This document shows positions 1,261-43,570 of a DNA stretch of 47,704 bases, piece after piece. Source of the stretch: Parasitella parasitica NRRL 2501 (taxonomy: Eukaryota; Fungi; Mucoromycota); NCBI GenBank assembly GCA_025201805.1, contig MU619409.1:3112-50815 (forward strand), written 5' to 3'. The position numbers and the translations under genes are program-made. The number at the start of each line of letters is the position of its first letter. The first letter of the stretch is position 1. The notes beneath the pieces were generated by a model. The model had not been told where the DNA came from, did not search any database, and worked only from the letters and a program-made list of their open reading frames with translations.

Positions 1261-1486
1261 CTGATCTTTCGTAATCATTGAATAAGCTTAAACCTGTTGT
1301 ACCAGTGGGCACAGCAGACGATTGTATATGACAATAAAAATGAAAACGTCATAAAGACTTCATTAGCCAGATATAAAATCATTGTTTTTATTGATTGATA
1401 TGTAGTTGTCTATTTACACGTTTTAGAGTAAATCTACATGATTCAATCTATAAACACAGTCAGGTGAAAGGATATGATAATCAAAA

Positions 1487-2931
1487 TTACAACTTGGCTT
1501 CCAAGAATTCAGCTCTGTTTTTCTGTTTGGAAGCAGCCTTGTTGTAGTCTTCTTGAGTAATATGTCTTGCTTCAACAGCAGGATTGTAACCCACATGAGG
1601 CTGACAGGAGCCTTGAGTAGCCTTCTTGTAGATGGTGACAACGACAGCACCGCCTAAACCAACATTGTGTTGAAGAGCATAATTGACATTGGCAACTTGA
1701 CGATCGCCAGTCCAGTTTCGCAATTGCCAGACCAGCTCGGTACATTGAGCAAGACCAGTGGCACCGAGAGGGTGGCCCTTTGAAATAAGCCCACCGGACG
1801 GATTAATAACGTATTTACCACCATAGGTATTATCGCCTGAATCGATCAAAGTATGAGCTTTGCCTTGCGGAGTCAAGCCAAGACTGTCGTAAGTCAAAAG
1901 TTCATTGGCAGAGAAACAATCATGAAGCTCGATGACTTGGACGTCGTTGGGAGTGATTCCAGCCTTTTGATAGGCTTGAGCGGCTGCACGACGAGTCATG
2001 TCACAGCCAGCCCACTCAATAGCATCGGTGGTCAGCATACGAGGAGAGTCGGTAGCCATGACCTGAGCAACAATCTCCACAGCCTGATCCCACAAGTTGT
2101 GTTTCTTGACAAACGCTTCGCTTGCGACAATAGAGCAGCCAGCGCCGTCAGAAGTGGGGCAGCACTGCAGTTTTGTAAGAGGACCGTATACTTTGGGTGC
2201 CTGTTCAACCTGTTCTAAAGAATAAATGTCCCTGAACTGAGAGTACGGATTGCGAGCACTGTGGCGATGATTCTTTTCGGCAATTTTAGCCAAGTGCTGG
2301 GGTGTAGCGCCGTACTTTTCCATGTAAGCAATGCCGGCGTTACCAAAAATCTGGGCAGCACCAGGAGCTTTGGGATCAAAGCCTTTTTCCTGCATCATGA
2401 CCATCATTACATGGTCTTTATATAATCAGTTAGCAGGGTTGGATGAGAAAATAATGCCATGCAATCGTTTTTTTTTTGTTTTACCAAGAGGGTTTGTGCG
2501 ATCTGAGAAAGTCGAAGAAAGAGAGCCTCTAGCCATTTTCTCGAACCCAAGAGCCATGGCACATTCTACAGTGCCGGAAGCAACTGCGTTGCGTGCCTGA
2601 TAAAGAGCAGTTGAGCCAGTGGAGCAGTTGTTGTTGACATTGATGATGGGAATTTGCGTCATTCCCAATTGATACAGGACACGCTGTCCGGCTGTGCTGT
2701 CGCCGTAGACATATCCTACAGAGGCATATTCAACCGCATCGTAAGATACACCGGCATCATTTAGTGCTTTTACAGCTGCCTCAAGGGCAAATTCTGTATG
2801 ATGGATGCTTAGCAATTTCAAAGAACGCCTTTCATGGACTACTTGTTTTTACCTGGATAATCGACCTCTCCGCGAGGTTTGATGAACTTGGACATGCCAA
2901 CACCAATAACGTATACTTTGTTTTGAGTCAT
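1487..2931 (-). CDS. Peroxisomal SCP2-type thiolase (propanoyl-CoA C-acyltransferase-like), 3 exons, no fused SCP2 domain
   Basis: Spliced protein begins [16 protein letters not shown]. It has catalytic [30 protein letters not shown] and [10 protein letters not shown] motifs, and ends in PTS1 -AKL. Introns at ~2794-2853 and ~2417-2484. Confidence 0.93.
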
Positions 2932-3724
2932 TTTTTTGATCAATGTGAAAAAGAAGGAAAAGAAAAGCAAAGGGCAGAAAGATGCTTATAAAGTTCCATT
3001 CAAATGTGGGGAAATTACACCAGCAGTCCATCACATGCGATACAGTGCAACCCTGATCGTAAATTAGGATAATTTGCAATGACAGAAGTGAGGGAGTTCG
3101 AAAGGGGGAGGGGATAGCTTGCATAAACAACTTTTTGATCCAGGTAGATGGATGGCCTGTATGCTTGGCAAAAGACGAGGTACGACTTTACATGTGTATC
3201 TACAAAGGGTCGTATTGAGAAAACTGGTGAAAAGCTTTGTGAGAACTGTTTGCCCGTCAAAATAGTACCAAAAAGTGACAACTAACACGAGTCAGAATTT
3301 ACGGATTTTGGTCGTTCCTTTAACAGATGTCTTTTTGAAAACATTTCTTTAACCTCATCAGCCATATGGATCAGAGCATTGTCTATAGCGATGTGACATA
3401 CGTTAATGTAGTCTGGATGTACCGGCTATTATCTTTATTAAACCCCCTCCCCTCCCCCCCGCCAAGCCCTTCTTTGATCGTTTAAAGCACCATTCAACTC
3501 AATAATAGTTGAATTGTTCCTTCCAGTGCTTGGCATTTGCAGTGTCTGCAAATCAAAACAATCAGTGAGTCTCTGTATTGGGTAGTTTAATTATGTTATT
3601 GTTGACAATCTTAAGAAGCTGCATTGTGGCTTCCAAATTGCTCATGAGTTTAAATCCGAATTTTTTTTCTGCGATGGATATTTTTTTTTTTTTTTTTTTC
3701 AATTATTATTATCTCTGCCCAAAA

Positions 3725-4670
3725 ATGCAAACACAATTTAACACTCGAGGAAACGCCTGGCGAGGCTCGAATCCGTCAAGACAGCTAGACGGATTGTCTC
3801 AAGCACAGGCTCGGCCACTCGAGGCTATGAGTGGACACGAATTAAAAACACAATACGAAAAGATCAGTACTATGCTAATTAACCCGTAAGTATGTTCATG
3901 GCTTAAACAACACACACACACACCATACCAAACACTCGAATAAATAGCAATCTGAAACTGCCTGACGGTGGAGCTAAGCTGAAGGCTAAATTAAAACAAC
4001 TTGAAGCACTGTTAGATGCGCAACAAGTAAATGCTAATGTCATTTCAGACAAAGTGTCAGAATTGTCCTTGCATGAGAAACCCGATGTTCGTAAAGCAAC
4101 GGTACTACGATCCAACCAAACTCAGGTTCATTCTGACAATCTGCTACGAGCTCACCCTACGTCAAACAACTACAAAGCATGCAGTCAAGTGGCACATGTG
4201 AGTTTTGATGCCCTTTTTTTTTATTCTTTTCTCATTTTTATGACTAGAGCACTCAAATGATGAGTCTGGAGGAATCCATGCAACTGCAAGAAGCGCAGCA
4301 AAAGGATATTAAATTGGCAAATATGAGAAAGAAAATACAGTCAATTCGAGGGTCTTCTGCTAGACATACAAGCGAAAGTTTGGCCGACGATTTGTCATTG
4401 ACTATGAATAGGCTGCAATTGGATCCGGAGACTCGTCAGCCTCGCCCAGATGATGACAACCCTGAGGACATGGAAGGAGAGGACGCTGATAATGACGATG
4501 ACGATAACGGTGACGATGACGATGACGATGACACGACGGACTCGGACGAAGATGATGATTTCGATGATGTGGATGGCTACGAAAGATATGACGACGAGGG
4601 CTACGAGGAAGACGACCAAAATGTGTTTGAAGACGGTCAACATCACAACAATAACAATAGACGCTTGTAA
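3725..4670 (+). CDS. Gdown1/GRINL1A (POLR2M)-like protein, 3 exons, acidic C-terminal tail
   Basis: GT-AG introns 3886-3947 and 4198-4247 join in frame to give ...ELKTQYEKISTMLINPNLKLPDGGAKLKAKLKQLE... and ...STQMMSLEESMQLQEAQQK..., matching the Gdown1 LPDKG and L-S-I-EES-x-x-LQ motifs as recalled. Confidence 0.7.
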
Positions 4671-4877
4671 TGTCTGCTGAAAATAAAGGGTTATTCTGCA
4701 TAAATATTGGCTGCTTAAAATTGAACATTGACAAGCGTATTTGGTCCATGTGCCAGCAATTTGTATTTGACAAATGATTGGACCAAATGCGAATTCTACC
4801 ACAGCTACACTTTTACCCACCAAAACAAAGCAAAGCAAAAAAAAAAGCCTTTTCTCTTTTCCATTCCACACTGGGGG

Positions 4878-4913
<36 letters not shown>

Positions 4914-4916
<3 letters not shown>

Positions 4917-5972
4917 AACAGCCGATATCGTGAACGAAAGTACAACACATCAGATAACGATCGCTTATTAAGAGCATTGTCCCAGCCTGTCCAAGCTTGG
5001 TAACGTGCATCTAGCCGAGATAAAAAAAAAACGCGTATTTAAACAGTGAATGTAGGGAGAAGAAATGGACACCGCAAGCCAACTCAAAGACATTTCATAC
5101 CTTTAAATGGGTCAAATGTAAGCGAATTGATACAATTGCGGGCACATTAGCTAACACTGTGTCTCACTGACCCAATAGCTGACAAAGTGATTGAATTTGA
5201 GCAAGATGAAGAGAGTGACGAAGAACCTGAGCCCATGGACACTGACCAGACGCACATTGCAGCAGCTGTTAGTTTGGACACCAAAGCAGAAAGCACCACA
5301 AATCAAGCCGCTGGTAGCACTGGCATTGCTGTCTCAGAAACTGCGATTTCAAAAGACACCGTCGATGGGCAGGAGAAAATCTCTTTGGGTTCTCAGCAAC
5401 CAGAGACCGCATTGAATGCAGCAAGCGATACAGCTACATCAACCACTACAACTCTAGAAAATGCAGCTAAAAAATTAGATGAATCCGCCATCCCCGGAGG
5501 ACCCAGTTCTATTATATCCAACAAGGCACTTTCATCCATCGTTGCTGAGGAAGAAGAGGACGACGACCAGAGATCCCAAACACCAAAATTAGACGATATT
5601 TCTGACGAGGAAAAGACCAACGCAGACGATGATGAGGAGAACGATGTAGACAGCATAAACGATCCCTCCAAACATCCTGCTTTAGCACCCCATGCTCAGG
5701 CCCATATGACAGACGATGATATGACAGACTCGACTGTCGCCACACCTCAAACTACAACCGAAGGAAACACGCCTATGCCCTTGCTAGAGGATGATGCCAT
5801 GGACGAAACGCCAAACACATTGCCTCATCCCCTAAGCCAAGAGATACTGACTGGCACCACTGCTTTCATGAATAATGAAGATACAGCCTCCTTGAACAAC
5901 GACTCTCCTGCAATTCAAACACCTGAAGACCATGTTACTCAACACGAACCAGAGGCAATGGAAGAGCAGTAA
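4914..5972 (+). CDS. BCL7/Rtt102-like SWI/SNF-associated protein, 3 exons, long acidic disordered tail
   Basis: Introns 5000-5055 and 5118-5178 splice to give MNSRYRERKYNTSDNDRLLRALSQPVQAWEKKWTPQANSKTFHTFKWVK, similar to the BCL_N motif (VRKWEKKWV...IYKWVP). Confidence 0.65.
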
Positions 5973-6133
5973 TCTATCTTTTATTTATCAGCATCATCCA
6001 CAACTGATCTTTTTGTTAAATTCTTATATGGTAATAATCCTGGCAGTGTTTCAATAATAATAAAACGGACTCGCCTTTTTTTTTTTTTTTTTNNNNNNNN
6101 NNNNNNNNNNNNNNNNNNNNNNNNNNNCAAAAT

Positions 6134-7908
6134 ATGAAATTCTTGTACAGTAACTTGTACAAGCACTCACACTATCAAAGCAAAATTTCTCCCAACAACT
6201 ACTATGTAGCAAACGTAGTAGATAATCGACTAGTCCTAAGAAAAAACGACCAAGACCTGATGGTTCTTCAAGTGCACGAAACACGCCGACCGATTGACTA
6301 TGTACAATGGGCACCTGATTCGCAATACATATTGTGCGTCAATTACGAAAATTGTAGAGTAGACGTGCGATCAGTCACTGATTCCAAGTGGCAGGCCTCT
6401 ATTTCAGACAAAACATTTCCATTTGTGCGAGTCAAATGGAGCCCTGATTCAAAAAATATCATATGCGTAGCTGAACTTGGGGTAGTATCAAATTAACAGC
6501 AATACGAATATCTGTGCTGAACCCCGCTATTTTAGCTAAGAATTGCTATATGGAACTTGTCCACCACAGTCATGAAATTCATAAACCATGCAAAATATTC
6601 AGAGAAAGGTTTCAACTTTTCCAGCAAAAAAACAAATGAACATTTGTTTGACTTTTTTTTTCGTTTTAGGGATTGAAACAAGTCCAAACGGCGAACACAC
6701 TGCCATAATAGAAAAATACGACGGAAAGGATTATGTTAGCATATATCATGCCAATTCGTTCATTTTGTTACAGGTAAACATGCTCTGTGAGCTTGGGCTA
6801 ATGTCGAATGACCTAACAAACAGCATAGCGATTTGAATTGGATACAGTGGATGTGGAAAATATAAAATGGTCTCCAAACAGCATGTATATCGCAGCTTGG
6901 GATGCTTGTCTTTATGTAACTATGAAATCAGTGAGGAAAACAAGCAATTCTAATCCTTTTCCGTAGCATAAACTATCAGTGTACCGTCAGGATGGGGCTC
7001 TCATCAAATCTTATTCTGGATATGAGTATGGTTTAGGCATAAAATCTGTCCATTGGAGCCCTACTAGTCAAATCATTGCTCTGGGCAATTTTGATGATAC
7101 GGTAAGCCCCGATTATTTTCATATGGAATATACCGAAAAATCTCAACGACCAATTAGATACATGTTTTATCCACATTGTCATGGCAACTGGTTGGAACCT
7201 TACGGCATCCAACCACACTAGGTGCATCAACAGAGACGGTAAATACATTTTCACCGGAAGCACATATTAATGAAAATGACGTTTACAGTGCCTCTGTCTT
7301 GTAGAATATCTTTGAGGAAACGGTGTCACAAAGGCCAGAAGTTTCGACATTTCCTACCAGCAATATATATTGTAAATGCAAGAACGAACGTATACACTGT
7401 GGCTATTTTCTCACTATTGAACTAGATCGACATGCTTTGAAACGTCCGTTCAATATTCCAGCACGTAGAGTAGACTACAACGAGTTCGATCCTAAAGTTG
7501 GCATTGGATCATTTTCCTTTAGTTCTGACGGATTGTACATTTGTAGTAAGAGCGATTTGATGCCGTCTGTGGTGTGGATTTGGCAACTGTCTACTCTAAA
7601 ATGCATACACTTGTTGGTATTCAAAAATCCCATCAAACAAGCCATGTGGAATCCAGCGCAGGATCATTCGCTGGCTTTGACATGCAATGATAAAAATATC
7701 CATTTTATTGAGTTGACAGTCGAGAATGAGGGAATTGATGCGATGCCAATGACGGTGCCAACAGGTAAGTCAGTGGTGATAACTTGCAGCCTTTCATTTG
7801 ACATTTGACATAGATGACTTTTCAATCAAACAATTTAAATGGAGTCGTAAGGGAGATACCATGTTGCTTTTAGATCAGGATTTGTTTTGTTTGGCAATGA
7901 CTCAGTAA
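6134..7908 (+). CDS. WRAP73: WD40-repeat protein WRAP73/WDR8 (spindle-pole/centrosome factor), multi-exon
   Basis: WD repeats with family-typical segments VKWSPDSKNIICVAELG-LRIAIWNL, GKDYVSIY, YEYGLGIKSVHWSP, PKVGIGSFSFSSDG and MPSVVWIWQL. Many short GT-AG introns; stop TAA at 7906-7908. Confidence 0.85.
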
Positions 7909-8811
7909 AATATGTTTTCTTGGCAACGCTATGAGTTGCAAAGATTTATATTGATCTACAGCCTGTGCCTGAAAATGAAACGCATTGGCCTAGAGTTTAA
8001 TGCCCTTGTGATATATAATTTTCACCATTAGTATTCATGAATTAGTTTTTTGTATGTTTCTGTGATTACAGCAACACTTTGAAGTTTGATTGGGCAGCCA
8101 CATCTTTTGTTCAGTATGAAGAATTAGAGTCCTGTTCACAGCTATGTACGGTAGGTCGCTTCTGCCATTGTGTGCTCATTTAAAGCCCTCAAGTGACTCG
8201 AAGGATGTGTCTCACCCAAAGTATTTAATCAAGCCCACTACACGGTACTTTTTTGACCTTTGGGTAATCAATTTAATACAATCTAGAGACCTAAAACATG
8301 TCGACATCATTGAGAAGCTCTTGATGCTATGATTTACACTTTTTTTTTTTTTNNNNNNNNNNNNNNNNNNNNNNNNNNNNNNNNNNNNNNNNNNNNNNNN
8401 NNTGACTCTCTCTTGCTAAGAAGCTATTTCTTTCGCTTCATAAATACTCACGCAAATGTTTCATAAATATCGAATATTTGGTAACGCAAATAAAAAAAAG
8501 TTGGCAAGGTAAGCAAATATGCACAAAATGGATTTAAGCTTTAATTGCCATACAAACGGAAAAAAAAAGTATTCGTAATGGGATTATTGCACACAAAAGT
8601 TGTATATATTCGCCCGATTCTTCATCTACTGCTTTGCGTCTAATTTTGCTATCGGAATAGTTTTCATCTGCAAAACACCAGTCTGGCAATAAGGTTGAAG
8701 GGGCGGGAGAAAGCATGCTTTTTTCACCGTTCCACGTGCACATTCAAAAATGACGAATTAAAAGAAATCCAAAAGATAAAAAGGAGACTTGCTGTTATTT
8801 AGCGATAAATA

Positions 8812-9978
8812 ATGGGACAATCATCATCAGTATCTAATACCAACACAGCACCATCTTCAAGACATGACAATGCATCTACCCGGACATTACACTCAACCTC
8901 TATCCGTTCACAAAGGCCAGTCTCCTTCTTTAGACGAATATCTAACCGACTTCAAGCAACACATCCTGCACGCAGATTTGGGATACCTAGTCGGCACAAC
9001 CAACAAACTACTTCAGCGTCTTCGACAACATCCAGTGTCCGTCGAGCAACGCAAGAAGCAACAAGGCAAGCAGCAGCAGCAACTGGGCCACCGACTAATT
9101 TTCTGATACAGTCATCTTCCCTATCGCCAACGCCCTCACCTCCACCTGTACCTCTGAATAGTAGTAGAAACAGCATCATGTCGTCAGATACTCATACAAA
9201 CGATCAGTTGCCATCTGCAGCATTCAGAGATAATAACAGCGTTTACTCGTCAAGTCATGAGTCTCAACGAGGTAATTCATTCCAAAGATACCTGCAAGCA
9301 CCACTTAGAATGCAGGACACTCCACCACAGTCTTCAGCGTCATCTGCTACATCGAGAAGAATGCATATACTAGTTATAGAGTACCGCACTAACAATAGCA
9401 ACAGCATCAACAGCATCAACAGCAACAACAGCATACCAGAAGACACTACAGCTCCATTAACACCACCTCCTACATATAGATTCTTGGGACTACGACGACC
9501 AAGATCACAAGTATCTACCACATCGTCCACAGAAACCATTCGGTCCATGCCCTTATCCATGAACTCTGCACAAACAAATATTCGCAATGCATCTCAAGCA
9601 CAGCAAGAAGGCCAATGGATTGTCTATGTATTGAATAGCAACAATCTCAATAGCAATAGTGCACCACTACAAACTTTATCTTCTCCGTTCGCTCTTGACG
9701 ATAATCCGTCGTATGAAGATTTACTCTGGTTGACCAATATGCTGGGGCCTGCGAGACCCAGTACAACAACCCAAGCAGCAGTAGATGAGGCAATTCCAGT
9801 GACACAATGGTCAAGCGAAATCAAAGATGACCAATGCCTTGTGTGTCTCGATGAATTTGCCGTCAAGCAGCCAGTTCGAGTCTTGAAATGTCATCATGTT
9901 TTCCATCGAGAATGTGTGGATCGTTGGTTGTGTGAGGCACATAATTCGTGTCCTGTATGTCGTGGTGTTCCGGTATAA
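8812..9978 (+). CDS. RING-H2 E3 ubiquitin ligase with predicted N-myristoylation
   Basis: C-terminal CLVC...C-H-H-VFH-RECVDRWL...CPVCR RING-H2, preceded by SYEDLLWL..LGPARP. N-terminus MGQSSS. Intronless 388-aa ORF. Confidence 0.9.
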   Translation: MGQSSSVSNTNTAPSSRHDNASTRTLHSTSIRSQRPVSFFRRISNRLQATHPARRFGIPSRHNQQTTSASSTTSSVRRATQEATRQAAAATGPPTNFLIQSSSLSPTPSPPPVPLNSSRNSIMSSDTHTNDQLPSAAFRDNNSVYSSSHESQRGNSFQRYLQAPLRMQDTPPQSSASSATSRRMHILVIEYRTNNSNSINSINSNNSIPEDTTAPLTPPPTYRFLGLRRPRSQVSTTSSTETIRSMPLSMNSAQTNIRNASQAQQEGQWIVYVLNSNNLNSNSAPLQTLSSPFALDDNPSYEDLLWLTNMLGPARPSTTTQAAVDEAIPVTQWSSEIKDDQCLVCLDEFAVKQPVRVLKCHHVFHRECVDRWLCEAHNSCPVCRGVPV

Positions 9979-10505
9979 AGGTATTTCCTTTGACATCATT
10001 TGAAATGAATCCAATCAAATGTGCCAGACCCAAACAATTAACCTTGTTTCTATTAAAGCTATATCGTATAATTACCAATACCGTATCTGTGTCATGGAAC
10101 AAGGTTGCCATGGTGACCGTACCTGAACAATTCCCAAGCGATATTCCAAGTTTTTCTTTTTTTTTTGTTTTTTTTTTTTTAGCATCCTATTTTTCACTCA
10201 AAGTCCTTCATCTATTCATAAATTGTCATATAAAAACATGAATTTAATTAAATCCTGCTAATCGTGTGAACCAACCAAAACCAACCAACCCCCACATTAT
10301 TTTTGTCCATCAGAGCCAATTGAAACATTTGAACCTTCTTTATATTTTATATCTCAAAAAGGAAAAAGAAGAATACTCATGTGAAATCATGAAACCCACT
10401 TTTTTTTTTTTGGTATAAAAAAGAAAAGGGCAAGTAGGAAAAATCTCTTTTCACTTCACCCTTCCTTTACTTTTTACTATACAACAGTTAGTTAGTTAAC
10501 CAAAA

Positions 10506-12045
10506 ATGACTATTTCAAATCAACCCAAAGTATTAAATACAGACAACATGAACCCACTCATCAAGAACGTAGAGTATGCTGTTCGTGGTCGTTTGGCCAT
10601 AAGGGCAGAGGAAATCCGCACCGACATTGAGAAAGGCACAAAGTATCCATTTGACAAAGTGGTCAACTGTAATATTGGTAACCCTCAACAGTTGAACCAA
10701 ACACCCATTTCGTTCTTCCGCCAAGTTGCCTCTCTATGCGACAACCCCGATTTGTTGAAGCAGGAACATCGTTCTCTTGTGTCTCAATTGTATCCTCTAG
10801 ACGCCATTTCCCGTGCAGAGACCCTGCTGGCATCCATTGGAAGCGTTGGTGCTTATTCTCATTCCCAAGGCGTGCCTCATATCCGAGATACAGTAGCCAA
10901 GTTTATCGAGGAACGCGATGGCTACCCAGCAGATCCCAATCACATCTATCTTACTCAAGGCGCTTCTGCAGGCGTGCAGACTCTTTTGAGCATGTTGACC
11001 GAAAACGAAAAATCCGGCATCATGATTCCTATTCCTCAATACCCTCTTTATTCAGCCACGCTGTCTCTCTACGGCGCAACGCCGGTGCATTATTATCTCG
11101 ATGAATCAACTGGCTGGAGTCTGGACGTGAAGCAGCTGACGCAAGTAGTAACTAGTGCACGCAAGCAAGGAACAGATGTGAGGGCTTTGGTCATTATCAA
11201 CCCTGGCAACCCCACCGGCCAGTGTCTGGATGCTGAAAATTTGCAAGAGATTGCTTCATTTTGCTACAAAGAAAGATTGGTGCTGCTGGCTGACGAAGTG
11301 TATCAGACAAATATTTACGAACCAGAGCTACGCCCCTTTATTAGTTTCAAGAAGGCATTGATGGGCCATCCCGATGCAGAGGTAAGGCAAGGGGTAGAGT
11401 TGGTTTCGTTCCACTCCATCTCCAAAGGTATGGTTGGCGAGTGTGGTCGTCGTGGCGGCTATTTTGAGTGCGTCAACTTGGACCAAGGCATACTGGATCA
11501 AATATACAAGATGGCGTCTGTTTCGCTATGTCCCAACTTGCATGGCCAAATCCTGGTGGATCTCATGTGTAACCCTCCACGTCTCGGGGACCCTTCCTAT
11601 GAGTCATACACGGCAGAAATTAAAACCATTTACGATTCCTTGCGCCGTCGATCCACAAAATTAGAGGCTTGCTTCAACCGTCTGGAGGGCGTGAGCTGTG
11701 AGCCGGCTCAAGGCGCCATGTACTTGTTTCCTAAAGTCACTCTTTCCAACAAGGCCGTTCAAGAGGCTGCAAAGGCCGACGTTGCTCCTGATGCTTACTA
11801 CTCTCATGCCATGCTGGAAGCGACTGGTGTTTGCGTCGTTCCTGGTAAGTTATTTTTCCCACGCTAGGGTGTTGCACTGCAGAAACTAACTCTCTGAAAA
11901 AAAAAACACAGGTTCTGGTTTCGGCCAGCAAGATAATACATGGCACTTTAGGTCGACCTTTTTGCCCGAGGAGCATTTGTTTGACCAGTTTTGTGCAGAT
12001 CTCGAAGCATTCCACTGCAAATTCCTCAAAGACCATAGAGATTAA
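10506..12045 (+). CDS. ALT1: Alanine aminotransferase (PLP-dependent), 2 exons
   Basis: Motifs VEYAVRG, CNIGNPQQL, GAYSHSQG, INPGNPTGQ, LADEVYQ and PLP-lysine SFHSISKG..GECGRRGG. Intron ~11846-11911, then GSGFGQQDNTWHFRSTFLP. Confidence 0.95.
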
Positions 12046-12734: not shown

Positions 12735-15700
12735 ATGGCCATTATTTACGAAGACGTCAAAGTAATCTATGGTTTCCCAGATGGAAAAACCGCTGTTGCG
12801 TACAAAGCAGACGGAAGGTAAGTCGACTCTCATGTCGAGGTACGAATGTCTCATAGCTGAACGCAACGACAACTCAGGGAGGCTGTTGTGGGCGGCGCAC
12901 AAGGCTCAGGGCTGAAAATCTACGAAACAGACGCAATTGACGAAGAGTACCAGCATGTTGAAGTTACAGAGCACATTGATAATGTCACTTGTGTGGCAAC
13001 TAATGTAGGAACTTGTTGAAAACGGTGCAAAAGATTTATTAACTTGTTGTCAACAGGGGAGTGGCGCTTTTGCGTCTGGGGGAACGGACGGCATTGTAAA
13101 CTTATATACCAAGGACAACAAGTTTGACAGAATTCTGGTCAGAAGCACTACTCCCATACGAGATATCAGTTTCCATCCTAACGGATCAAAGCTGGCTATT
13201 GCTGCAGAGTTAGTACAAAAAAAAGGGGGGGGCGGGTGGGTGCTGCTATACTTGTACCTGATCTAATAAAGTCTCGTAGCGACAACGTTATCCGCATTAT
13301 ACTCTGCGCCGATAACTCTAAAATCGTCAACCTTGAAGGACACAAACACCTCGTCAAATCGGTGGATTACGACTGCCGTGGCAACTATATTATTTCATCC
13401 GACACGCAAGGCAACATCCGTATCTGGAACGTATCGGCAGAGGAACCAGCACCAAAATGTGTAAAAGTGCTGACAGAGTACAGCTACCAAGCAGATATGG
13501 ATTCTGCATTACAAACCAGGGTGGAATGGCACCCTGACGGCAGCTGCTTTGCATTCCCTGGCACAAACAATGACATCCGTGTCTTTAAATCAGACATTTG
13601 GACGTCTTATTACACACTGGAGGGACAGCATACGTCAAGCGTTGTTACATTAGCTTGGTCTCCCAACGGCTACTATTTGGCTAGCTCTTCCGACGACAGC
13701 ACTTTTGCCATTTGGGACACTAAAACCAAGGCCAGTGTTCGACTTGAAATCACATCAGCGACAATCACAGGCATTGCTTGGCATCCTACTGAAAACGAGG
13801 TGTTTTTAACCGACGTGGACGGGGCTCTCCGAATCTGGAAGGAAGCTATACCTACCAATGACAGCAACTACCCACACCCAGCCAAAATTCGCAAAAAGCC
13901 TACTTCTGGCATTTCTGCCTCTCAGCAGATATTCAAAGCCGACAAAGAAGATGTCTCCAGCAGTGTTCCACCGCTTAGTTCGAGCCTTTTTGCTGACGAG
14001 GAAGCTGAAGACGATGATGAAGAAGGCGATGATGTGAATATGGATGACATTGGAGAAGACGTTGATGACGAGGATGAGGAGCTGGGCGAGAATGACATGG
14101 GCGATTTCGTTATCGATGACGATGGGGCTGGCTATGTGGAAACACCCGAGCAAATAAACGAACAAAGGAAGCAATCGAGAATAAGCGTGTCAAACAGCGG
14201 CAGTGGCGGATCAGCAGTAGCCAATGCAGCACTAGTTCAGCGCCAACGCAAATTGGAAGCAGCATTTGATCCACCTACTTTGTTTCAGCCTGGAGAGACG
14301 CCCTACCATAAGCCTGAACCAAACACTTTGTTTGCACCAAAGCACGGCGAAAGACGATACATGGCTTATAACCTGGTTGGCGCTATTTCCACAATCTTTG
14401 AAGACGGGCACTCTATTATCAGTGTCGAGTTTCACGACCAATCAGAATACCGCAATTTCCATTTCACAGACGTACTGAACTTTACAATGGGAGCCATCAG
14501 CTCTGCAGGCACAGTCTATGCAGTGGAAGGTAAAGAGACAGTAAAGAAGACCAAGCGCGGAGGGCCCGATGGGGATGACTTGCTCGATTCAGACGATTCA
14601 GACAATGATGAAGAGGAAACTACTCGGATCAATTCGACATTATACTTTAGACCTAATAATACCGGCGCAGAGAAAGACTGGACACATCACATGCTACCAG
14701 GGGAAGATGTTGTGAGTATAGCTATCAATCGCATCTCTGTGGTGGCAACGACTTCTTTAGGTTATGTCCGTATTTTCTCTATATCAGGTGTACAGCGCCA
14801 TGTCTTTTCATTGGAGAATGTAGTGTCTATCACTGCCATGACGGATCTCGCATTGCTCGTGTACTCTGCCGGGCCAGCATTCGGACATCAACAGAATTTA
14901 GACTTTATGCTGCTGAATACGGAGACCAATGAAATGTTGCAGAAGGACAAGATCCAATTAACAACAGACAGTGAATTGAATTGGATCGGATTCTCAGAAA
15001 CAAACCAGGCTGTAACATTTGATTCCGCGGGCGTCTTGCGTTTGCTCTATCATCAGCGCCGTCCGTTCCAGGGCCGATGGATTCCTGTATTTGATGGTAA
15101 AGCCTACGCTACAGCAAATGGCAGAACCGAGAAATACTGGCCCGTGGGTGTACTGCGCGACCGACTGATGTGCGTTATTCTGCGTGGCAGCAACGCTTAT
15201 CCCTTTTTTCCTCGCCCTCCTGTCAAAGACATTCCATTGCGAATGCCCTTGTTGGAGCAATCAACAGAGGTGGGCGACCTGGAAGAGAGTGTCCTGCGCA
15301 TTGAAACATGCAATGCTCATGAAAGAGATGAGGCTGAAGCCACCAACACTGCGGATGACTACGCCGACACATTTAATGAATCCGATGCAGAAATGGACAT
15401 GGCGCTGTTAAAGCTGATCAATATAGCGTGCAAGGCTGAGAAAGTATCAAAGGCATTGGATTTGACGTACATTCTTCATTCGTCCGATTCAGTCGACAGA
15501 GCCATCAAGATTGCAGTATTTCATCACTACACTACTTTGGCAGAGAAGATGACCAAAATCAAGCAGGTAAGTCGCCGAGTGAGCTCATGCGCATGTGTAT
15601 ATTTACTTTGAGCTGCTGTAGGCCAAATTCATCAACGAATCCTTACCAACGCCGTCTACATTGGCTGATTCGTTAGCAGCACTCCCGAGTATTTACCCAT

Positions 15701-22802: not shown

Positions 22803-24883
22803 ATGGCACAGCTAGAAATTTTACACTTTAATGATGTCTACCATGTATCGCCAAGCAAAGAAGAGCCTGTCGGTGGCTCGTCACGGTTTGTTGGCAAAAT
22901 CAATCAAATATTGGCAGCATCGACTGCGCAAGACAAGCCGACCGTGTTGTTTTCGGGCGATGCTTTCAACCCAAGTCTAGAAGGAACCATTACTCGCGGC
23001 GCTCATATGTAACGTATACCGTCTGCTTCCAAGCATAAGCTAACCACTCACATAACAGCCCTGGTATTCTGAATCAGTGCCATATCGCAGCAGCATGTGT
23101 GGGGAACCATGACTTTGATTTTGGCATGCCACAGCTGGAGAAGCTCATAGGACACACTGCATTTCCATGGCTGCTATCAAATGTTCTAAACAGCGACAAG
23201 AGTGCCTCTTCAGACAGGATCAAGCGGTTCATCATCACCGAGCAGCCCAATACCGGCTTGCGTCTTGGGATTATTGGGCTGGTAGAGGAGGAGTGGATCC
23301 AGACTATCCCCTCGTTTCCTCCCGAATTGACTTACTACGACTTTATACAGGTGGCCCAAGACCTGTCCAGACAGCTGAGAGACCCTAATGGGCCGCACAA
23401 GGTGGACCTGGTAATTGCACTCACGCACATGCGAGTTCCAAACGACATAAAGCTAGCAAAGGCCTGTCGACGAGAAATCGATCTGATTCTGGGAGGACAC
23501 GACCATTTCTACTACGTATCAAAGTCGATTGACATTGTGGGAGACAACTGGACTCGAGAAAACAACGTGGCGGATGTGGGGTTCGACCCTGAGGAGGAGC
23601 AGGTAGACTTCCCTGTGCGTGTGGTGAAGAGTGGCACTGATTTCAGAGAGTTTTCGTGGCTCAAGCTGGACATTGGCACCCACTCGGATGGGCAGCGGTA
23701 CATTCAGCACATGACTGCACAAAGAGAAATTGTCACGTCTGACGTTGTGCCTGATCCTGAGACGGAGCGCCTGGTGCAGGAGGTGAGGAGCCAAGTTGCT
23801 TCCAAGACGGCCACAGCAATCGGCTACACTACTGTCCCGCTGGATGGCCGCAGCATGTCTGTTAGGTCAGAGGAAACAAACCTGGGCAACCTTACTGCTG
23901 ATTTAATGGTCGGCTTCTACCGGGCGGCCTCTTGTCCCCCCGTCGACATTGGCTTCTGCGTAGGTGGAACCATCCGAAATGACAGTGTTATTGAAGCCGG
24001 TGAAATTACCTTGGGAGACATACTTACGGCGTTTCCGTTCCTCGACCCAGTGGTTGTGATCCGCATCACTGGACAACAGCTATGGGAAGCGCTTGAAAAC
24101 AGTGTTTCCGAGTACCCTAAACAGGAAGGGCGGTTTCCACAGTTATCCGGCGTTCGTCTTGAATGGAATCCCAACGCCCCTTCCGGAAGCAGAGTTCGCC
24201 GCGTCTACACTGTAAGAAAAGGTGCGCAGTACGTTGCCACCAACGCACGTCGGCGCTCATTGACATTTCCCCACACGGTCGATTCTGGAGATAAATACCG
24301 TCCAGAGAACATGGACCCGCTGGACATGGCCAAAGACTACGTGGTTGCCACCCGCGCCTACCTGATTGGTGGCTATGATGGATATACGTCGCTGAAGGTG
24401 TCTGCGGATAGGATCATTGTCGACGAAGAGGCAGGCGTCCTGATTTCGACCATGTATCGAAAGTTCTTTTTGGGGCTCAAGTACATCAACGCCTTCCGCG
24501 AATACCAAGCCAACCATGTGCACCGGAAAGACCGCATCAATCAGCTAGTCGCCTCTGCTGCAGCGCACTGGCGTGATCTATCGTTTCAATTCAAGCGACA
24601 CAACCACCCTAACGATGGGCGTAGCTGCGACTGTGAGACCAGCAGCCAAGACGGCCAGTCCTTCCTCGACAGCGCCATTGCGGATCGTGCCAACTACCAC
24701 ATCTCCAAGCAGGGCATCCAAGACGCCTTTGTAGACGCAAGCAAAGGCCACCCCAGCTGCATCGCTGCAGAAGAAGACGAAGACCGAGGCAAATATGACC
24801 AGGAAAATGACCTCACCTGGGTCAAGAGATGGGCCAGTATCTCGCCTGCTGTGGAGGGAAGAATTGTGAGGGTGGATGATTAG
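22803..24883 (+). CDS. 5'-nucleotidase family metallophosphoesterase (calcineurin-like plus 5'-nucleotidase C domain), 2 exons, no signal peptide
   Basis: Motifs HFNDVY, SGDAFNPS, GNHDFD, ALTHMR, LGGHDH, ETNLGNL, GGTIRND and EGRFPQLSG. Intron 23009-23058. Confidence 0.92.
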
Positions 24884-25142: not shown

Positions 25143-26736
25143 ATGAACTCTACAGCTACAGCAGACGCTCTGCAAATCTCGGCAGTCGCTGCTGCAAAAT
25201 ACGTGGCTAAAGGAGTTGGAAGACTATTCTACATTGTCTCCCCACAAGAAACCACTTTTGCCCACTATAAACAGGTACCCGACTACATTGCAGAGGCCAT
25301 CCCGTTCTTTGTGCTGACAATCGCCTTGGAGTTTCTGACACTGGCAATCAAGGACGGAGGAAAAGGCCTCAGGAAGCTGCGTCTGTGGGACGCCGGCAGG
25401 CTTTCTGTCAATGATGTTGTGGGCAGTATTGGGGTAAGTTTTGTATTCGCTGCAACAGTGAACAAGAAAAAGAGTGCGTAATGCTTTACAGGCAGGCATG
25501 CTGCAGCAGTTGAGCAAGTTCTTTATATACAACATGTCGCTCAATTCCTACTTGTACGTCTACAATCACTTTCGGCTTGCTGACCTGGACCCTACAAAGC
25601 TGTGGGTCTGGGTAGCAGGCTTTCTTGCTGTCGATCTCGGATATTACCTGTTTCATCGCGGAGCGCATGAAATCAACCTGTTCTGGGCTGCACATGTAGT
25701 AAGTGGGGGCTGGGCGTTTTTTTTTTTTTTTTTTCATATAATATATATATATATGGCGGATTGGTCTTTATAAACACATTGAGATATTTAGGTACATCAT
25801 TCGTCTGAATACTACAACCAGACAACGGCTTTGCGTCAGAGCATCTTGCAACCTTACACCTCTTGGATATTTGACCTGCCCAGTGCTCTATTCTTGCCGC
25901 CGTCGCTGTATGTTATGCACAAACAGTTCAACACATTGTTCCAGTACTGGATCCACACCCAAGTCGTTGGCAGTCTGGGACCGCTTGAATACATCATCAA
26001 CACGCCATCCGCACACCGAGTTCACCATGGACGCAACCCTTACTGCATCGACAAGAATTACGCCGGCACCCTGATCATTTGGGACATTCTGTTTGGCACA
26101 TTCGAATTGGAGCGCACGTCTCTGCTGGGCAAGACTCAAGCCGAGCCCGTTGCGTTTGGACTGACGCACCCCATCAACACATTTGATCCGTTTACTATCC
26201 AGTTTCACCATCTCTCGCATGTACTAAAGACGTGTTGGTCGACACAAGGCTTCCGAAACAGGCTCAAAGTGCTCTTTTACGGCCCTGGATGGCACGACGA
26301 TACGCCGAGAACAGGCTTGTTGGAGGAAATACCACCCATTGCCAAGGACACGCCGCCGCGCAAATACGATCCGTCAGTGTCGCTTGGAATAAACGTGTAC
26401 GCTGTATTCCACTTTGCGGTGTTGGTCGTGGTAAATGGCATGGTCTTGGACTATAGCCCAGGGCAGCTCGACTTTTTCGTAGTCTTGGCTGCCACAGCTT
26501 ACATTTTCGCCACGTTAACTGTTTTTGGGTGGATATTTGACCTCAAGCCCTATGCCATTGAAAGCGAATTCATTCGATCCGTCTTGGTTTGCGGTGCAAT
26601 TGAACTTGCCCAGTATAAATCAATTCTGCCAAGACAGATGGCCATATTCCAAGTCTTGCAGTTTGTCAGTAGCCTATGGCTCCTGTTGACTCAGAGAAAA
26701 CAACAAGGAAATCTCAGTAACTGCAAAACCGAATAA
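25143..26736 (+). CDS. AGMO: Alkylglycerol monooxygenase (TMEM195, fatty-acid hydroxylase family), 3 exons
   Basis: [58 protein letters not shown] and [29 protein letters not shown] match AGMO His boxes. Confidence 0.92.
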
Positions 26737-29142: not shown

Positions 29143-31132
29143 TTACACGACTGTAACTTGTTGTAAACCTTCAGTCGCATTTGAATCTTCACCGTCATCT
29201 TCCGCAATAATCTTGTCGCTCAAGTGCTTTTGATCTTTACCCAAATAAATAGCTTTTTTCTCGCCAGAAACCACCTTGCTGTTTATAACAACTTGCTCAA
29301 CGCATGAAGCCGGTGTGTCGTACATTGGATCCAACAGCAGATTCTCCTATCAATGGGTGCATTTAGCAACAATAACACGAGCGTCATCTCTCTCTCTCTC
29401 GTTACCATGATACGGCGCAATCCTCTTGCACCCGTCTTTTTTTCCAGTGCCAGTTCAGCTATCTTTCGTAGTGCTGTTTTACTAAATCTAAGATTCACCT
29501 TACTCAATGCAAACAAGCCTTGGTACTGCTTTAATAGCGAGTTTTTCGGCTCAGTCAGTACTCGCACCAAGTCGTCTATTGTCAGGTTCTCTACAGAAGC
29601 AATCACGGGTAATCGGCCAACAAATTCAGGGATTAGGCCATACTTGACTAGATCTACAATGTATGCAAAAGAAAGAAAGAAAAAAAAATAAGGAAAAAAT
29701 GTTGGACTGTGGGATCAGGTCAAACCCAATACCTGCTGGTTCCGTCAAGCTGAGAGGGTGCAGAAACTGCTTTTTTCCGCCCAGCAGACTTGATGTAATT
29801 TGAATTTTATCATCATCCGAGGCTTTCATCAAGGCATTGAATCCAATCGACTATGTGGCCATCACTTGCGGTTAGGACATTTGGTTTCCTGCATAATTTC
29901 ATGCAATTTACATACTCCCTTGTTCATTCTATCTTGGATAGTCTTGTCCAATCCCACAAAGGCACCGCTTAGAATAAACAGTATGTTGCTAGTGTCTACC
30001 GCATACGTTTCTCCTTTTCCACTTTGGCCGAGCCCACCGTTGCCGGCGCTGTTTCCGCCAGACTGCCCGTTTCCAATAGGGCTGCCTGCCATGCCGCCAC
30101 GTCTGTTGCTGCTGTTTTGTGAACTGCTGCTGCTTGCGCCCTTGTCGGTTACATTGACGATTGTTCCTTCCAACATGCGCAGCAATGACTGCTGTACGCC
30201 TTCACCAGAGACATCTCGCGAGGCAGACATTGAGTCTGATCTCCTAGAGATTTTATCAATTTCGTCGATAAACACGATGCCCGTCTCTGCTCTTTTAACG
30301 TCATAGTCGCAAGCTTGAAGCAGTCTTTGAATCACCAATTCGACGTCTTCGCCTACGTAGCCTGCCTGCGTGAAAGGGGTTGCATCCGACATTGAAAATG
30401 GCACTTGCAGTATCTGGGCGAGCGTTCTAGCCAGTAGCGTTTTCCCTGAGCCAGTCGGGCCGATCAGCATGACATTGCTCTTCTCGTACACTGTAAGATC
30501 GTCCGACGCCAGGCTTTGTTTCTTTTTCAGCTCTTGGGACTTGCTGCGACTGATGGCGGCATTGGAGGTGGTGGTAGGTGGGTTTTCCCAATTCCGGCGC
30601 TGATGCTGATGATAATCTCCATTTGAACTGATTCTTTCTGCAGGAACCAGATCGAGCCCCACGCTTTGAAGAGCCGTATCGTTTGGCAACGAAGGGTGGT
30701 GGTGCTCAGCATGCGGCTTATCGTCGTCATACTGCTCCTGCTCAAGCTGCTGCTGCTGCTGCTGCTCCAATTGGCCGACCAAGTTGGAGCGCACCCGACT
30801 GTAGTGGTTGAACACGGCGACTGCCAGCGTCTTTTTTGCTCTATCTTGGCCGATAACATAGTCATTTAAATGCTTTACAATCTGCTAAAGCGCTTAGTAG
30901 CCACCCCAGAGACGCATTAAAAACTTACTGTCCTAGGATCGGATACTATCGTCGAATCAAGGTGGTTTGGCCAGTCTGATAGGCTGTTTGCTGACGAGGA
31001 AGAGGAAGAGGAAGAGGAGGGGTCGCCAAAATGAATGCTACTGCTGTAACCACGGTTCGCAGTAAAACTAGCCGACAACACTCTCACGTTAATGGCTTGG
31101 ATGAGTAATCTGGTATGGCATTTATAGAGCAT
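29143..31132 (-). CDS. CLPX: Mitochondrial ClpX (Mcx1) AAA+ unfoldase, multi-exon
   Basis: [72 protein letters not shown] and TGARGLR. The N-terminus resembles a presequence. Confidence 0.95.
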
Positions 31133-37741: not shown

Positions 37742-40700
37742 TTACAACATAGAGTGAACTTGATCTTCGTCGATCATCTTGGAGATGTCAAGTCGGATGC
37801 GATTCAAAATAGAGGTTGCCGAAAAAGGTTGTTGTTGAAAAATAAAGCGAAAGTGAGCCTTCCAGACATTTGCCAAAGTAATAATGACGATAATGTAGGA
37901 GGGGGCCAGGGGCTTTTGACTGTATCGAATGTTGTAAAAATCAAGGTTGAGGATAGAGTGACGGATATCAGCGATAGTTACTTTGGGCCATAAAAATTCA
38001 GAGATGACACCTTGCCAAACAGAAGCCTTCGATGGACATGTAAATAAGAAGTGATCCACAGAGTCTTCAACAGAGGAGCAAACAGCACACAAGGAAGATG
38101 TATGTACAGTAGGAAAAATCCGTTGAAGAAGAGACTGATGCGGAATGCAGTTATTGATGAAACGATATAAGACATTGCGTTGGATCATGGTTAATGATAA
38201 ACACCAAAAGGATGACCAAGCAGTAGCTGGAATGGACGATAAATAAGGGGGAACAATGGATGAAGAGCAGGCCTGCCGGAAAGTCTTGGAAGTAATCCTG
38301 GAGGAGATGACAGTACGATCATTGGGAAAGATAAGTTGCTCTGCAAAAGGAAGAAGAGTGATGGATGTTGATTCAGGAGAATCCTCAGTTTGAGGGGTGC
38401 AAAGAGGACGAAAGAAAGGTTGGAGTTGGATGTGGCCAGAGGCAATACCTCTGTAAATCTGTTTTGGTGCTTGTTTCCAGATAGTTACGGTTGGATCATT
38501 AGAATCCTTCCAATGTAAAAAGTGATGAGTGGGATGGAGTTGAAAGACATCCGACACAAACATGGCCGAAATCTTTTGAGGGATTCGGAATGTACTGTGG
38601 GTAGGCTTGTAAAGAATGGTAGAAAGAGGAAGAAGAAGACCGGTGGCAATATTGAGAGAGACACTATCATAATCACGAGGAATCATATCAATTGATTTGT
38701 AGAGCATATCAATAGTTGACACCCGGCGTTTTCTGGTTAATAATCTGCGAGATACAGGTAGCAGCAGTGGAACTTGATGTAGTGAGGAACTATTATGATT
38801 ATTAATGTGATGAATAAGCATTCCGATTAACGAATTATCAGTCGTAGATGTTGAATTGGTCAAGAGTAAAGGTTGAATCCACCGAAAGTAGAGAGCCGAA
38901 TACTGCTTTGGAACATCCAGAATACCAAGGCCACCTTGGCTTCGTGGCAGAGTCCAGGTGCTCCACGGAATAGCAAGAAAAATGCCTTTGCGCAAGAATT
39001 GGATAGCAATAGAAGTGATTTGTTGTAAGTCGTGTGTAGTCAGAGGAGTGACACGAAAGATATACCAACATTTTGAGAGTATTAGAGAGTTGACAATCGT
39101 AGCTTTACCTACCACCGACAATGACCGGCCTGAATGAAATTGCAATGCTTGTTTAAGTGTACGAAGGAGAGAGCTAACATAGCTAACTCGTTGTTGCGTG
39201 CTTTGTATCAAAGGAAAACCAAGATAGATAATAGGATCAGTATCTTTAGCAGAATGTAGGTGATGAATATTCATAGCAGCAAGGAGCCTGTTCCAAAAAG
39301 GCGACGTATCCCGACCAGAAACTGAAAAAGCTTCCACTTTTGAATAGTTGAATCTTGCGTTGGAAGCTCGACAGAACAGATCCATATAGTATCTGAGCAA
39401 TCTTAAATCTTGGCGATCATGAACAAACACTAATGCATCATCAGCATAACACAAAATTTTTGTGGTAATCACCGAGGAATTCTGAGAGTCAGCCATGGCA
39501 TACGGTGTGGTGGAGGGAGTAGCAGCTATCGCACCCATTTGATATCCTTGGAAATCAGGATCTTGTAAAATTGCCCTGAGAAAAGGTTCAAATGCTAAAT
39601 CATAGCAAATGCAAGAAATTGGGTCGCCTTGTTTAAAACCACGGAGCTTGGAGACCTCCTCAGTAAAATATCCATTAATGTTGATCTTGATTTTGTTGAG
39701 CGCCATCAAATTGTACAAACAGTTGATAATACTTAACGGAAATCCAAAACGATTGAGAACAGCACGAAAATATGAAAGGTTGACACGATCGTACGCCTTT
39801 TCTTGATCCAGAAGCAGCCCAAGGTCATTGTCAAGCGAGGATTGAGTAGACTTTTGTTCCGCAAGTAACCATTTGAATTCAGCATCTTCCATGATCAACT
39901 GGCAACGGAGACCATTTTCCGCAATGTATTTTCCTGGTATGAAGCCGATTTGATTGCAATTAATCAACTTGGTAGATACAGTCATCATACGTTGGTTGAG
40001 GATCTTTGTGAAGCTTTTATAGTCGCAATTGGCTAAGCTAAGCGGCCTATAGTTGCCCATATTCTTGGAGTCACCCTTCTTTTTGAGCAGTGTCATGATA
40101 GAGTCATTCCACGAGGCAGGAAAAAGAGCCTGATTGAGAGCCGTATTGAAGACGTTGATCAGCAACTCCTTGTAGGCAGGAAAACGCATAACAAGATTCA
40201 TAATTTCATAAGGTAGCCCGTCAGCTCCAGGGCTCGAACGTCTAGGTGATGTCTTTAAGACGTCAAGAATATCGTCAAAGTCAATGGGAGCGACTAGGAT
40301 GGACTTGTCGTCAGCATTCAACCTAAGTTCACTTGGAATAGAGGATAGAAGTTCCTGTATGTCAGTAGGATCCACCATAGTTGGCGTGAAGAGATCAGCG
40401 TAAAAGTTGGTAGCAATACGCATTTTACTAGCTTGATCATCATGGACTGTATTTGTGCTGGGATCAGTGAGTGCTGTGATATTTTCCTTTGTCCCTCGCG
40501 GATTATAAAGGTTCGTTTTAAATATACTGCCATCTTTTCACCTTTCTCTCTCCAGTTTTTACCCGATTTTAAAGCTTGTATTTCTGCAGTGGATTCCTGT
40601 AAAGATCCAATTTGTAATTCAATAGTTTCCCGAACTTGAAAGTATAATCCTCTGTTCTTTTGTTGACGAAGCATCCTATTCCGCTTCTTCTGTAATCTTT

Positions 40701-41687
40701 TCAGCTGCTTGACTCTCCAATTGGTATCTTCAAGTTGAAATGACTTTACAAAAAGTTTGACATCGGCCTTGATCCAATCCCAGGTTTGTTGAGGAGAAGA
40801 AAATGATTGAATGGCTGCAAAGTCTTCCATTTTGAGGTGTAAATGCTGTGCTAAGGCTGATCTGAATGGCTTGCTTTTGGCGAGAAAGGGGTTAGCTTTC
40901 CAGGCCCCGGGTCCCCGACGAGAAGAATCAACAAACTGGAAAGAGATACCCAATAGTGCATGATCAGTCCAGTTCTTTGAGATAAAGCTATGATTCAAAT
41001 CATCCATCTTGTAGTGCGACCCTGAATCACAGAAAATAAAATCAATGATAGAAGAGCGAGAGGCGAGTTGCCACGTTGGTTTCTTCTGGTCTTTGAAGCA
41101 GTCTATGTAATGTTCATCCAGTAGAGAGATCCAAGAAGTCGGGGCACTTGTTAATGAGCCATCTGTAAGTCTGTGCCTTTCATATGAATAGTTGAAATCA
41201 CCCATAATTAGGGTTGGAGACGTACTAGTGTTGGTTAATGTATCAGTAATGATTGGAGAAGATCGAGGAGCGCTGTATAAAACGCAAAGCGTTGAGAGTG
41301 AATGCCAGATCTTCCATAAATGTTGAGTATTGTTGCGATGGTGTTGCCTGATAGTAAATCAGCACCATCCTCTATTGTTGCTGTAAGTTGAATTTGAGCA
41401 AGGATGAATCGACCTCCATCAACGCCATCCTGAACGACATGTATGCTGTATTTATTGTTAAGGCTAACAATGCCACAGTGTGGAGTCCAATGACTTGATG
41501 TTGTTATAAATTGTGTGTTGAGTTCTTGTATAATTTGTGGATTGATTGCATGTGTTTCTTGAAGTACTAAGATATCATAGCCTAATGTGCGAAGATATCG
41601 AATAAATTGTTGTCGTTTTTTTGGATTATTTTCTTTTCTGAGGCTACGACAATTAAGTGTGGCAATGGTGAGTTTTTGGTCTATCAT
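37742..41687 (-). pseudogene. LINE ORF2 (APE endonuclease, reverse transcriptase, zf-RVT) with two frameshifts
   Basis: APE: TLNCRSL, LQETH, MGDFN, IDFIF, TDH. RT: SPGADG, NYRPLSL, LDQEKAYDRV, QGDPIS, YADD, YLG. Zinc finger CAVC..EDSVDHFLFTC. Frameshifts at ~41260 and ~40475. Confidence 0.93.
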
Positions 41688-41695
41688 AATAATAA

Positions 41696-43201: not shown

Positions 43202-43570
43202 GCGAAAAAATCTGTGCGTGTGTTTTCGTCAATACTCTTTCAAGGTTAGTAAACAAATATAAAAAGTTGGGATGACTCAATATTAATCGAGCGCTGCATC
43301 TTTGGTTTTGACCTTTTAAGATTGATAGGTCAGTGACATTCCGATTTATAAATTGCTTATAAACATCAACTGTTTTCTTCTTTCGGAATTTAGCTTGCTA
43401 TACGGATACAGTAACTCTACTCCTTCCACGTCTCCATCATAGTTAATGAGTTGCTCCACAACTTATTGCGCATTGAAGTTTCCAAATATTTTGATGCACC
43501 AATTCTAAAACCGGATGTCAATATTATGCAAACACATATTAAAGAGTAAAACACCAGATCATAAGATAAT

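Follow-up and report, generated by a model that had tools for sequence, protein, structure and literature searches.

Human Gdown1 (POLR2M/GRINL1A) is the closest described system; its 368-aa reference is represented by PDB chain 28jc_M (entry 9t5h) and by the Pfam family PF15328 (GCOM2). Three Pol II-binding regions are described for this protein (PMC13443923): the RPB10-binding region (RBR, residues 19–73) on RPB10 and RPB3, the EBR (residues 224–255) on RPB2 and RPB12, and the protrusion-binding region (PBR, residues 290–334/344) on the RPB2 protrusion. Within the PBR, L303 and L304 are reported to be needed for inhibition (PMC13443923), and the PBR is described as clashing with TFIIF and slightly with TFIIB (PMC13486763). 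The latter study states that the cellular job of Gdown1 is unclear: the protein is a strong repressor in vitro and mostly cytoplasmic in animal cells, where its acute depletion has little effect on transcription. Human Gdown1 is described as having two export signals together with a cytoplasmic anchor based on arginines (PMC9728996). Another protein with the LPDKG motif in common is TTF2/Lodestar, an SNF2-family termination factor (PMC4007455), for which competition at the RPB10 site is predicted (PMC13486763).

In papers dating from 2020 up to August 2026, Gdown1 has been called “metazoan-specific” or “metazoan-restricted” (PMC13443923, from 2026; PMC8887472; PMC7704258), and a statement in PMC7704258 places it as absent from yeasts. 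Among the titles and abstract openings covered by a literature search, with most subscription papers outside its range, no report of a fungal or protist Gdown1 was found, and the string “fung” has zero occurrences in the 2026 structure papers PMC13443923 and PMC13486763 and their supplements. Judged by its sequence, the Parasitella gene described here is a new member of the known Gdown1 family outside this stated animal range. As an analogy of distribution only, a Fanconi anaemia complex (PMC11061109) and TORC1 regulators (PMC11836306), both unrelated to Gdown1, are described as shared with animals and kept in non-Dikarya fungi.

Gene structure and protein features

The gene lies on the forward strand of the window, the whole 47,704-nt stretch of Parasitella parasitica DNA that was analysed, and runs from the start ATG at 3725 to a stop codon at 4668–4670, with a product of 277 aa. 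Exon 1 (3725..3885, aa 1–54) encodes helix 1 of the RPB10-binding-like region and is followed by intron 1 (3886..3947, 62 nt, GTAAGT..TAG, phase 2). Exon 2 (3948..4197, aa 54–137) encodes the LPDGG turn, helix 2, a first export-signal-like motif and a Mucorales-specific middle block. After intron 2 (4198..4247, 50 nt, GTGAGT..TAG, phase 0), exon 3 (4248..4670, aa 138–277) encodes the protrusion-binding-like helix, a second export-signal-like motif, the acidic tail and the stop. The original prediction had proposed that two canonical introns join three fragments into one protein, and a transcript check bore this out: one assembled transcript contig from run X1 matches 3720–4813 letter for letter, with 3885 joined directly to 3948 and 4197 to 4248. 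The recorded type of run X1 is a guess; in four neighbouring genes (1300–8000), however, 14 canonical introns are absent from its contigs, so the run is spliced cDNA. Seven other splice choices, among eight open-frame combinations, were ruled out by the same contig. Both peptides quoted in the prediction are present in the order proposed, LPDGG at aa 58–62 and MMSLEES at aa 141–147.

Residues 50–277 are identical to the public Parasitella parasitica entry KAI8636548.1 (P0013), annotated as “hypothetical protein”. This model begins at Met50, without exon 1, and loses the first helix and half of the RPB10-binding-like region, while homologue comparison places the start of the relatives at the same Met as exon 1. 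An N-terminus missing in the same way was also observed in several other public models of the family.

Six features were located along the protein, all on the forward strand. The RBR match (3815..4026, aa 31–80, 19.2 bits) spans intron 1 and is a predicted helix-turn-helix around LPDGG. It is followed by the first class-1a nuclear-export-signal consensus match (4042..4071, aa 86–95), putative in function and found in 23 of the 29 Mucorales rows, and by the conserved middle block (4078..4155, aa 98–123), which contains one predicted helix, is recognised within Mucorales only and has no detectable animal EBR match. The PBR match (4248..4346, aa 138–170, 16.0 bits) places MMSLEES opposite human L303/L304 onward. 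The second export-signal consensus match (4380..4421, aa 182–195, with the class-1a pattern at aa 186–195) is present in all 26 Mucorales rows that cover it. The acidic tail (4449..4667) has low pLDDT in a relative's model and 51% D/E over the last 77 aa; it is preceded by R200 and R203, as anchoring arginines precede it in human Gdown1, a likeness judged by position only.

The class-1a export-signal pattern applied to the Parasitella protein (aa 86–95 and 186–195) is a weak predictor: two or more matches arise in 1.7% of 5,000 shuffles, and on the jerboa protein the pattern found the NES1 stretch and missed NES2. The Mucorales rows that share the matches are related and so do not count as independent. 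In addition, the animal PBR profile aligns Parasitella L182, L186 and L188 with L332, L336 and I338 of human NES2 (residues as given in PMC9728996).

An AlphaFold2 model of the Mucor circinelloides relative (P0003; mean pLDDT 63.5, pTM 0.26) contains confident helices at 37–52, 63–91 and 139–167, the remainder being of low confidence. Foldseek comparison of this model with the PDB gave generic helical hairpins alone and no match at E ≤ 0.001. A complex prediction of the P0003 RBR (26–90) with Lobosporangium RPB10 (P0322) and zinc, run without alignments or control folds, scored 0.28 against a mark of 0.34, which gives no verdict.

In overall layout, the Parasitella protein resembles human Gdown1: an RBR hairpin with LPDxG is followed by a PBR helix (hydrophobic-hydrophobic-S-L-E-E-S), a leucine-rich stretch aligned with NES2, arginines and an acidic end, and the protein is mostly disordered elsewhere, as indicated by the low-confidence parts of the relative's model. 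In contrast to the human protein, it is about 90 aa shorter, its RBR–PBR linker has about 60 rather than about 215 aa, its hairpin motif reads LPDGG with a two-residue deletion, R33 is not kept and the EBR is not detectable. The acidic tail is also longer than in human Gdown1, and the first export motif stands directly after the RBR.

Homology to Gdown1 and distribution of the family

A search with exon 3 returned 10 proteins, and a search with their alignment returned 32. The Mucorales alignment comprises 29 of these; a weak match and two sequences nearly identical to Mucor rows were left out. Against the PDB (177,635 sequences), the 10-sequence profile identified human GRINL1A as its top match (E 0.0013), and for the 29-sequence profile GRINL1A (E 1.9e-6) was the sole match at E ≤ 10. 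The matched stretches of the human protein, 10–72 and 284–336 (the second weak alone, at 6.7 bits), fall on the first and third of the three Pol II-binding regions, the RBR and PBR, in order. A single-sequence search of the PDB with P0013 did not find GRINL1A.

In the reciprocal direction, profiles built from nine named animal sequences gave the 19.2 bits (RBR) and 16.0 bits (PBR) noted above, and 0 of 4,000 shuffles (2,000 global and 2,000 local) reached either score. When each animal was left out in turn, the Parasitella scores stayed at 15.8–21.7 bits for the RBR and 11.7–17.8 bits for the PBR. The animal sequences had been chosen by the fungal profile, which favours this test; the PDB search is free of that bias. 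Profile–profile comparison with hhalign, with 25 rows on the animal side, part of them taxon-verified, gave 98.6% (E 9.6e-16) for the RBR and 96.9% (E 1.5e-10) for the PBR, with cross-region controls at or below 0.25%. The proposed homology to Gdown1 was thus upheld by the forward PDB search and by the reciprocal animal profiles, with both regions in the right order. An RBR with an LPDKG-type motif (reading LPDGG) and a PBR with the counterpart of the L303/L304 pair occur in the Parasitella protein, the RBR before the PBR in one helicase-free chain, and there is little doubt from these comparisons that it represents a divergent homologue of Gdown1.

Among 1.84 billion proteins, the 29-sequence profile had 161 matches at E ≤ 0.001, of which 150 were listed and 141 of those were new. 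Eighty-three of the newly listed proteins had at least 170 aa; 57 of these 83 match GCOM2 at E ≤ 0.01, with 36 reaching its gathering cut-off of 27 bits, and 60 carry both regions, the RBR preceding the PBR in all 60. The EBR profile gave no match in the Parasitella protein, in any of the 29 Mucorales rows or in 8 further proteins from outside the animals; the same profile misses many animals, finding only 5 of 7 named animals in leave-one-out runs and scoring above every shuffle for only 6 of 16 animal-like rows that had been held out. A comparison of the linker with those of animals likewise gave no match in the Parasitella protein.

The GCOM2 profile proposed as a check gave a split outcome. 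No match was obtained for the separate exon frames, for P0013 (aa 50–277) or for the seven closest relatives (P0001–P0007), whereas three more distant Mucorales relatives, from Lichtheimia, Fennellomyces and Zychaea (P0020, P0029 and P0030), scored above the cut-off at 31.8, 34.7 and 31.1 bits. Apophysomyces and Syncephalastrum proteins matched under the cut-off (20.6–25.7 bits). The Mucoraceae form, with LPDGG and the two-residue deletion, is the most drifted and is therefore without annotation. Some Mucorales proteins were seen to carry a precomputed PF15328 assignment and yet to be named “hypothetical”; the Gdown1 signal in Mucorales is already present, unnoticed, in databases.

The 29 Mucorales proteins share an LPDxG hairpin, the middle block, an (M/I/L)SLEES helix and, ahead of the acidic tail, a leucine-rich stretch. 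At the contact positions (human numbering), L24, L44, P45, D46, G48, E308, S309 and L312 do not vary across 23 Mucorales rows. All 23 have K or R at the R30 position and M, I or L at the L303/L304 positions, the pair being M141/M142 in the Parasitella protein. The R33 contact position is variable in Mucorales and is T in Parasitella. The Parasitella RBR is divergent, with LPDGG in place of LPDKG and the two-residue deletion ahead of the motif; the motif of sea-cucumber GRINL1A (P0099) is likewise LPDGG. In Fennellomyces sp. T-0311, two divergent family members (P0029 and P0031) were observed, which suggests a duplication in Lichtheimiaceae.

Twenty profile matches were looked up for taxon: 10 were animal-like, nine non-animal and one unnamed. 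Seven of the 10 animal-like matches fall in clusters that include animal proteins called GRINL1A (jerboa, sea cucumber, acorn worm, Bradysia, Leptidea, Gigantopelta and Daphnia), and three are unnamed. Fungal matches came from Cunninghamella, Calcarisporiella, Glomus, Tieghemiomyces, Entophlyctis and Batrachochytrium, and matches that were neither fungal nor animal came from the ichthyosporean Amoebidium and the amoebozoans Ceratiomyxa and Tieghemostelium. Both regions beat shuffles of the protein's own sequence in Amoebidium (GCOM2 36.9 bits, above the cut-off), Glomus, Calcarisporiella, Tieghemiomyces, Entophlyctis, Batrachochytrium and Ceratiomyxa, where 0 of 300 shuffles reached either region of the transcriptome protein P0092. 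Relatives with two regions therefore include glomeromycete, zoopagomycete and chytrid fungi, one ichthyosporean and one amoebozoan. In two dictyostelid-type proteins the RBR was clear and the PBR weak (7 and 4 of 300 shuffles at best; Tieghemostelium 7 of 300). In the ESM Atlas, the family's own cluster (score 0.91) has 82 members, mostly Mucoromycota, 11% of them with GCOM2; an arthropod GCOM2 cluster (0.88) and a basidiomycete cluster (0.87) are leads only.

Both regions in several fungal lineages and in an ichthyosporean firmly place the origin of Gdown1, as read from sequence, before the animal–fungal split, in agreement with the original prediction. An origin before the amoebozoan split is plausible, with one transcriptome protein and the weak dictyostelid matches pointing to it. 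Since relatives carrying both regions occur in several non-animal lineages, the simplest history is one of vertical descent with losses. A tree of 28 named proteins over the 81 RBR and PBR columns had mostly less than 60% support on deep branches and placed Ceratiomyxa on a long branch among Mucoraceae; given this weak support, it is uninformative about transfer or the order of events. The RBR and PBR appear to be ancient, and probably the export signals as well. A fuller scenario can be offered tentatively, with the balance tipped slightly against it as a whole: Gdown1 would go back at least to the ancestor that amoebozoans, fungi and animals have in common, it would have begun as a compact, export-signal-bearing cytoplasmic chaperone of new Pol II with two anchors (the RPB10 hairpin and the RPB2-protrusion helix), and the EBR and the mitotic or Mediator-linked repression would be animal additions. 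A compact mould orthologue would in any case move the origin of Gdown1 before the animal–fungal split and show which of its parts are ancient.

Proposed function and rival readings

There are good grounds, by analogy with the human protein, to expect that the Parasitella protein binds Pol II, and it is likely to be a true Gdown1 orthologue acting mainly as a cytoplasmic Pol II clamp. Following the human structures, RPB10/RPB3 would be the docking site of the N-terminal helical hairpin, and the RPB2 protrusion that of the C-terminal helix; the protrusion helix would compete with TFIIF, and the hairpin with TTF2-type LPDxG proteins at RPB10. Among the partners originally proposed (Rpb1, Rpb5, Rpb3 and Rpb10), RPB3 and RPB10 fit this arrangement, whereas the RPB1 jaw/RPB5 is described as the RPAP2 site in the 2026 structures (PMC13443923, PMC13486763). 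The two leucine-rich motifs may direct CRM1-dependent export and keep the protein mainly cytoplasmic, where, ahead of import, it would occupy RPB2 sub-assemblies as well as completed Pol II and shield the newly built polymerase.

Moulds are haploid and transformable, and the gene can be used there to ask which of two roles, polymerase assembly or transcription shut-down, is the core job of Gdown1. Mucorales may keep the nuclear envelope during mitosis. If the envelope persists, the route that the animal protein takes into the mitotic nucleus would be closed, and this would make for a sharp test.

Alternative readings differ in how much of the Gdown1 likeness they accept. The protein could be a true orthologue with a chiefly nuclear role, a Pol II(G)-type repressor imposing a need for Mediator, which is the model of the original prediction. 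The conserved PBR would suit such a role, since in the human protein its L303/L304 pair is needed for inhibition and its position conflicts with that of TFIIF and, to a slight degree, of TFIIB (PMC13486763). We regard this as unlikely: animal Gdown1 itself is described as mostly cytoplasmic, with little transcriptional effect of acute depletion (PMC13486763). A homologue that has drifted in function, binding RPB10 weakly or within another polymerase, or using its middle block and acidic tail for a role specific to Mucorales, would account for the divergent RBR of Mucoraceae, the restriction of the middle block to Mucorales and the undetected EBR (its profile being insensitive in many animals too). 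RPB10 is also common to Pol I, II and III, and its database entries are named as the shared subunit RPABC5. The Pol II-specific PBR residues are, however, invariant or conservatively changed in 23 of 23 Mucorales rows, and drift of this kind seems rather improbable.

It is harder still to credit that the protein is unrelated to Gdown1, a coiled-coil protein with a mobile LPDxG hairpin and a chance likeness in its second helix. The N-terminal motif, which the original prediction had treated as a mark of Gdown1, is not diagnostic alone, as TTF2 has it too (PMC4007455); two hairpin-only proteins (P0067 and P0167) score 16–30 bits for the RBR, and there is an Atlas cluster (score 0.82) with GCOM2 on 55% of its members, mostly from plants as far as its few taxa are recorded, which is no more than a lead. 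These hairpin-only proteins have no PBR, whereas in the Parasitella protein the PBR matches independently by hhalign at the values given above, far from the cross-region controls. TTF2, compared by description, has an SNF2 helicase domain; the 277-aa Parasitella product has a PBR and no helicase match. The independent PBR match, the order of regions kept in 60 of 60 two-region proteins and the lack of a helicase domain favour Gdown1 over another hairpin user, and the reading as an unrelated hairpin protein appears largely refuted by the PBR match. The reading as a mainly cytoplasmic Gdown1 orthologue is the one we retain as likely.

The two hairpin-only proteins are unrelated and of a different build. 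P0067 is a long protein without a PBR that carries four LPDGG hairpin copies in tandem before a PB1 domain, and P0167 carries three copies in a long, low-complexity protein, also without a PBR. Because both have the hairpin without the PBR, the LPDGG hairpin may be a mobile module with a wider use in RPB10 docking.

Neighbouring genes in the window

A thiolase-family gene (Thiolase_N, Thiolase_C_1) lies on the reverse strand at 1487–2925, divergent from the Gdown1-like gene and about 800 bp upstream of it, with two introns joined in transcript. The downstream neighbour on the forward strand (4914–5972) has three exons joined in a transcript contig and an acidic low-complexity tail. Single-exon scans of Pfam and the PDB found nothing for this gene; its short N-terminus, with WEKKW and FKWVK motifs, presumably recalls the BCL7/Rtt102 domain of BAF/SWI-SNF subunits. 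It is followed on the same strand by a multi-exon WD40 beta-propeller gene (6130–7910), with eight introns joined in transcript and weak WD40 family matches.

From 8809 to 31000, ordinary housekeeping genes were observed. Pfam-type domain scans identified a RING-H2 protein (8809–9978), an aminotransferase I/II (10500–11867), Ctf4/Mcl1 (13182–15611), a 5'-nucleotidase (23039–24883), an alkylglycerol monooxygenase-like fatty-acid hydroxylase (25792–26736) and an AAA ATPase (29862–30884). Further along, non-LTR retrotransposon-like frames occupy 37742–43228 on the reverse strand and include an endonuclease (40318–41358) and a reverse transcriptase with zf-RVT (37742–40537) in overlapping frames. 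A further, unassigned frame of 510 aa was observed upstream in this element.
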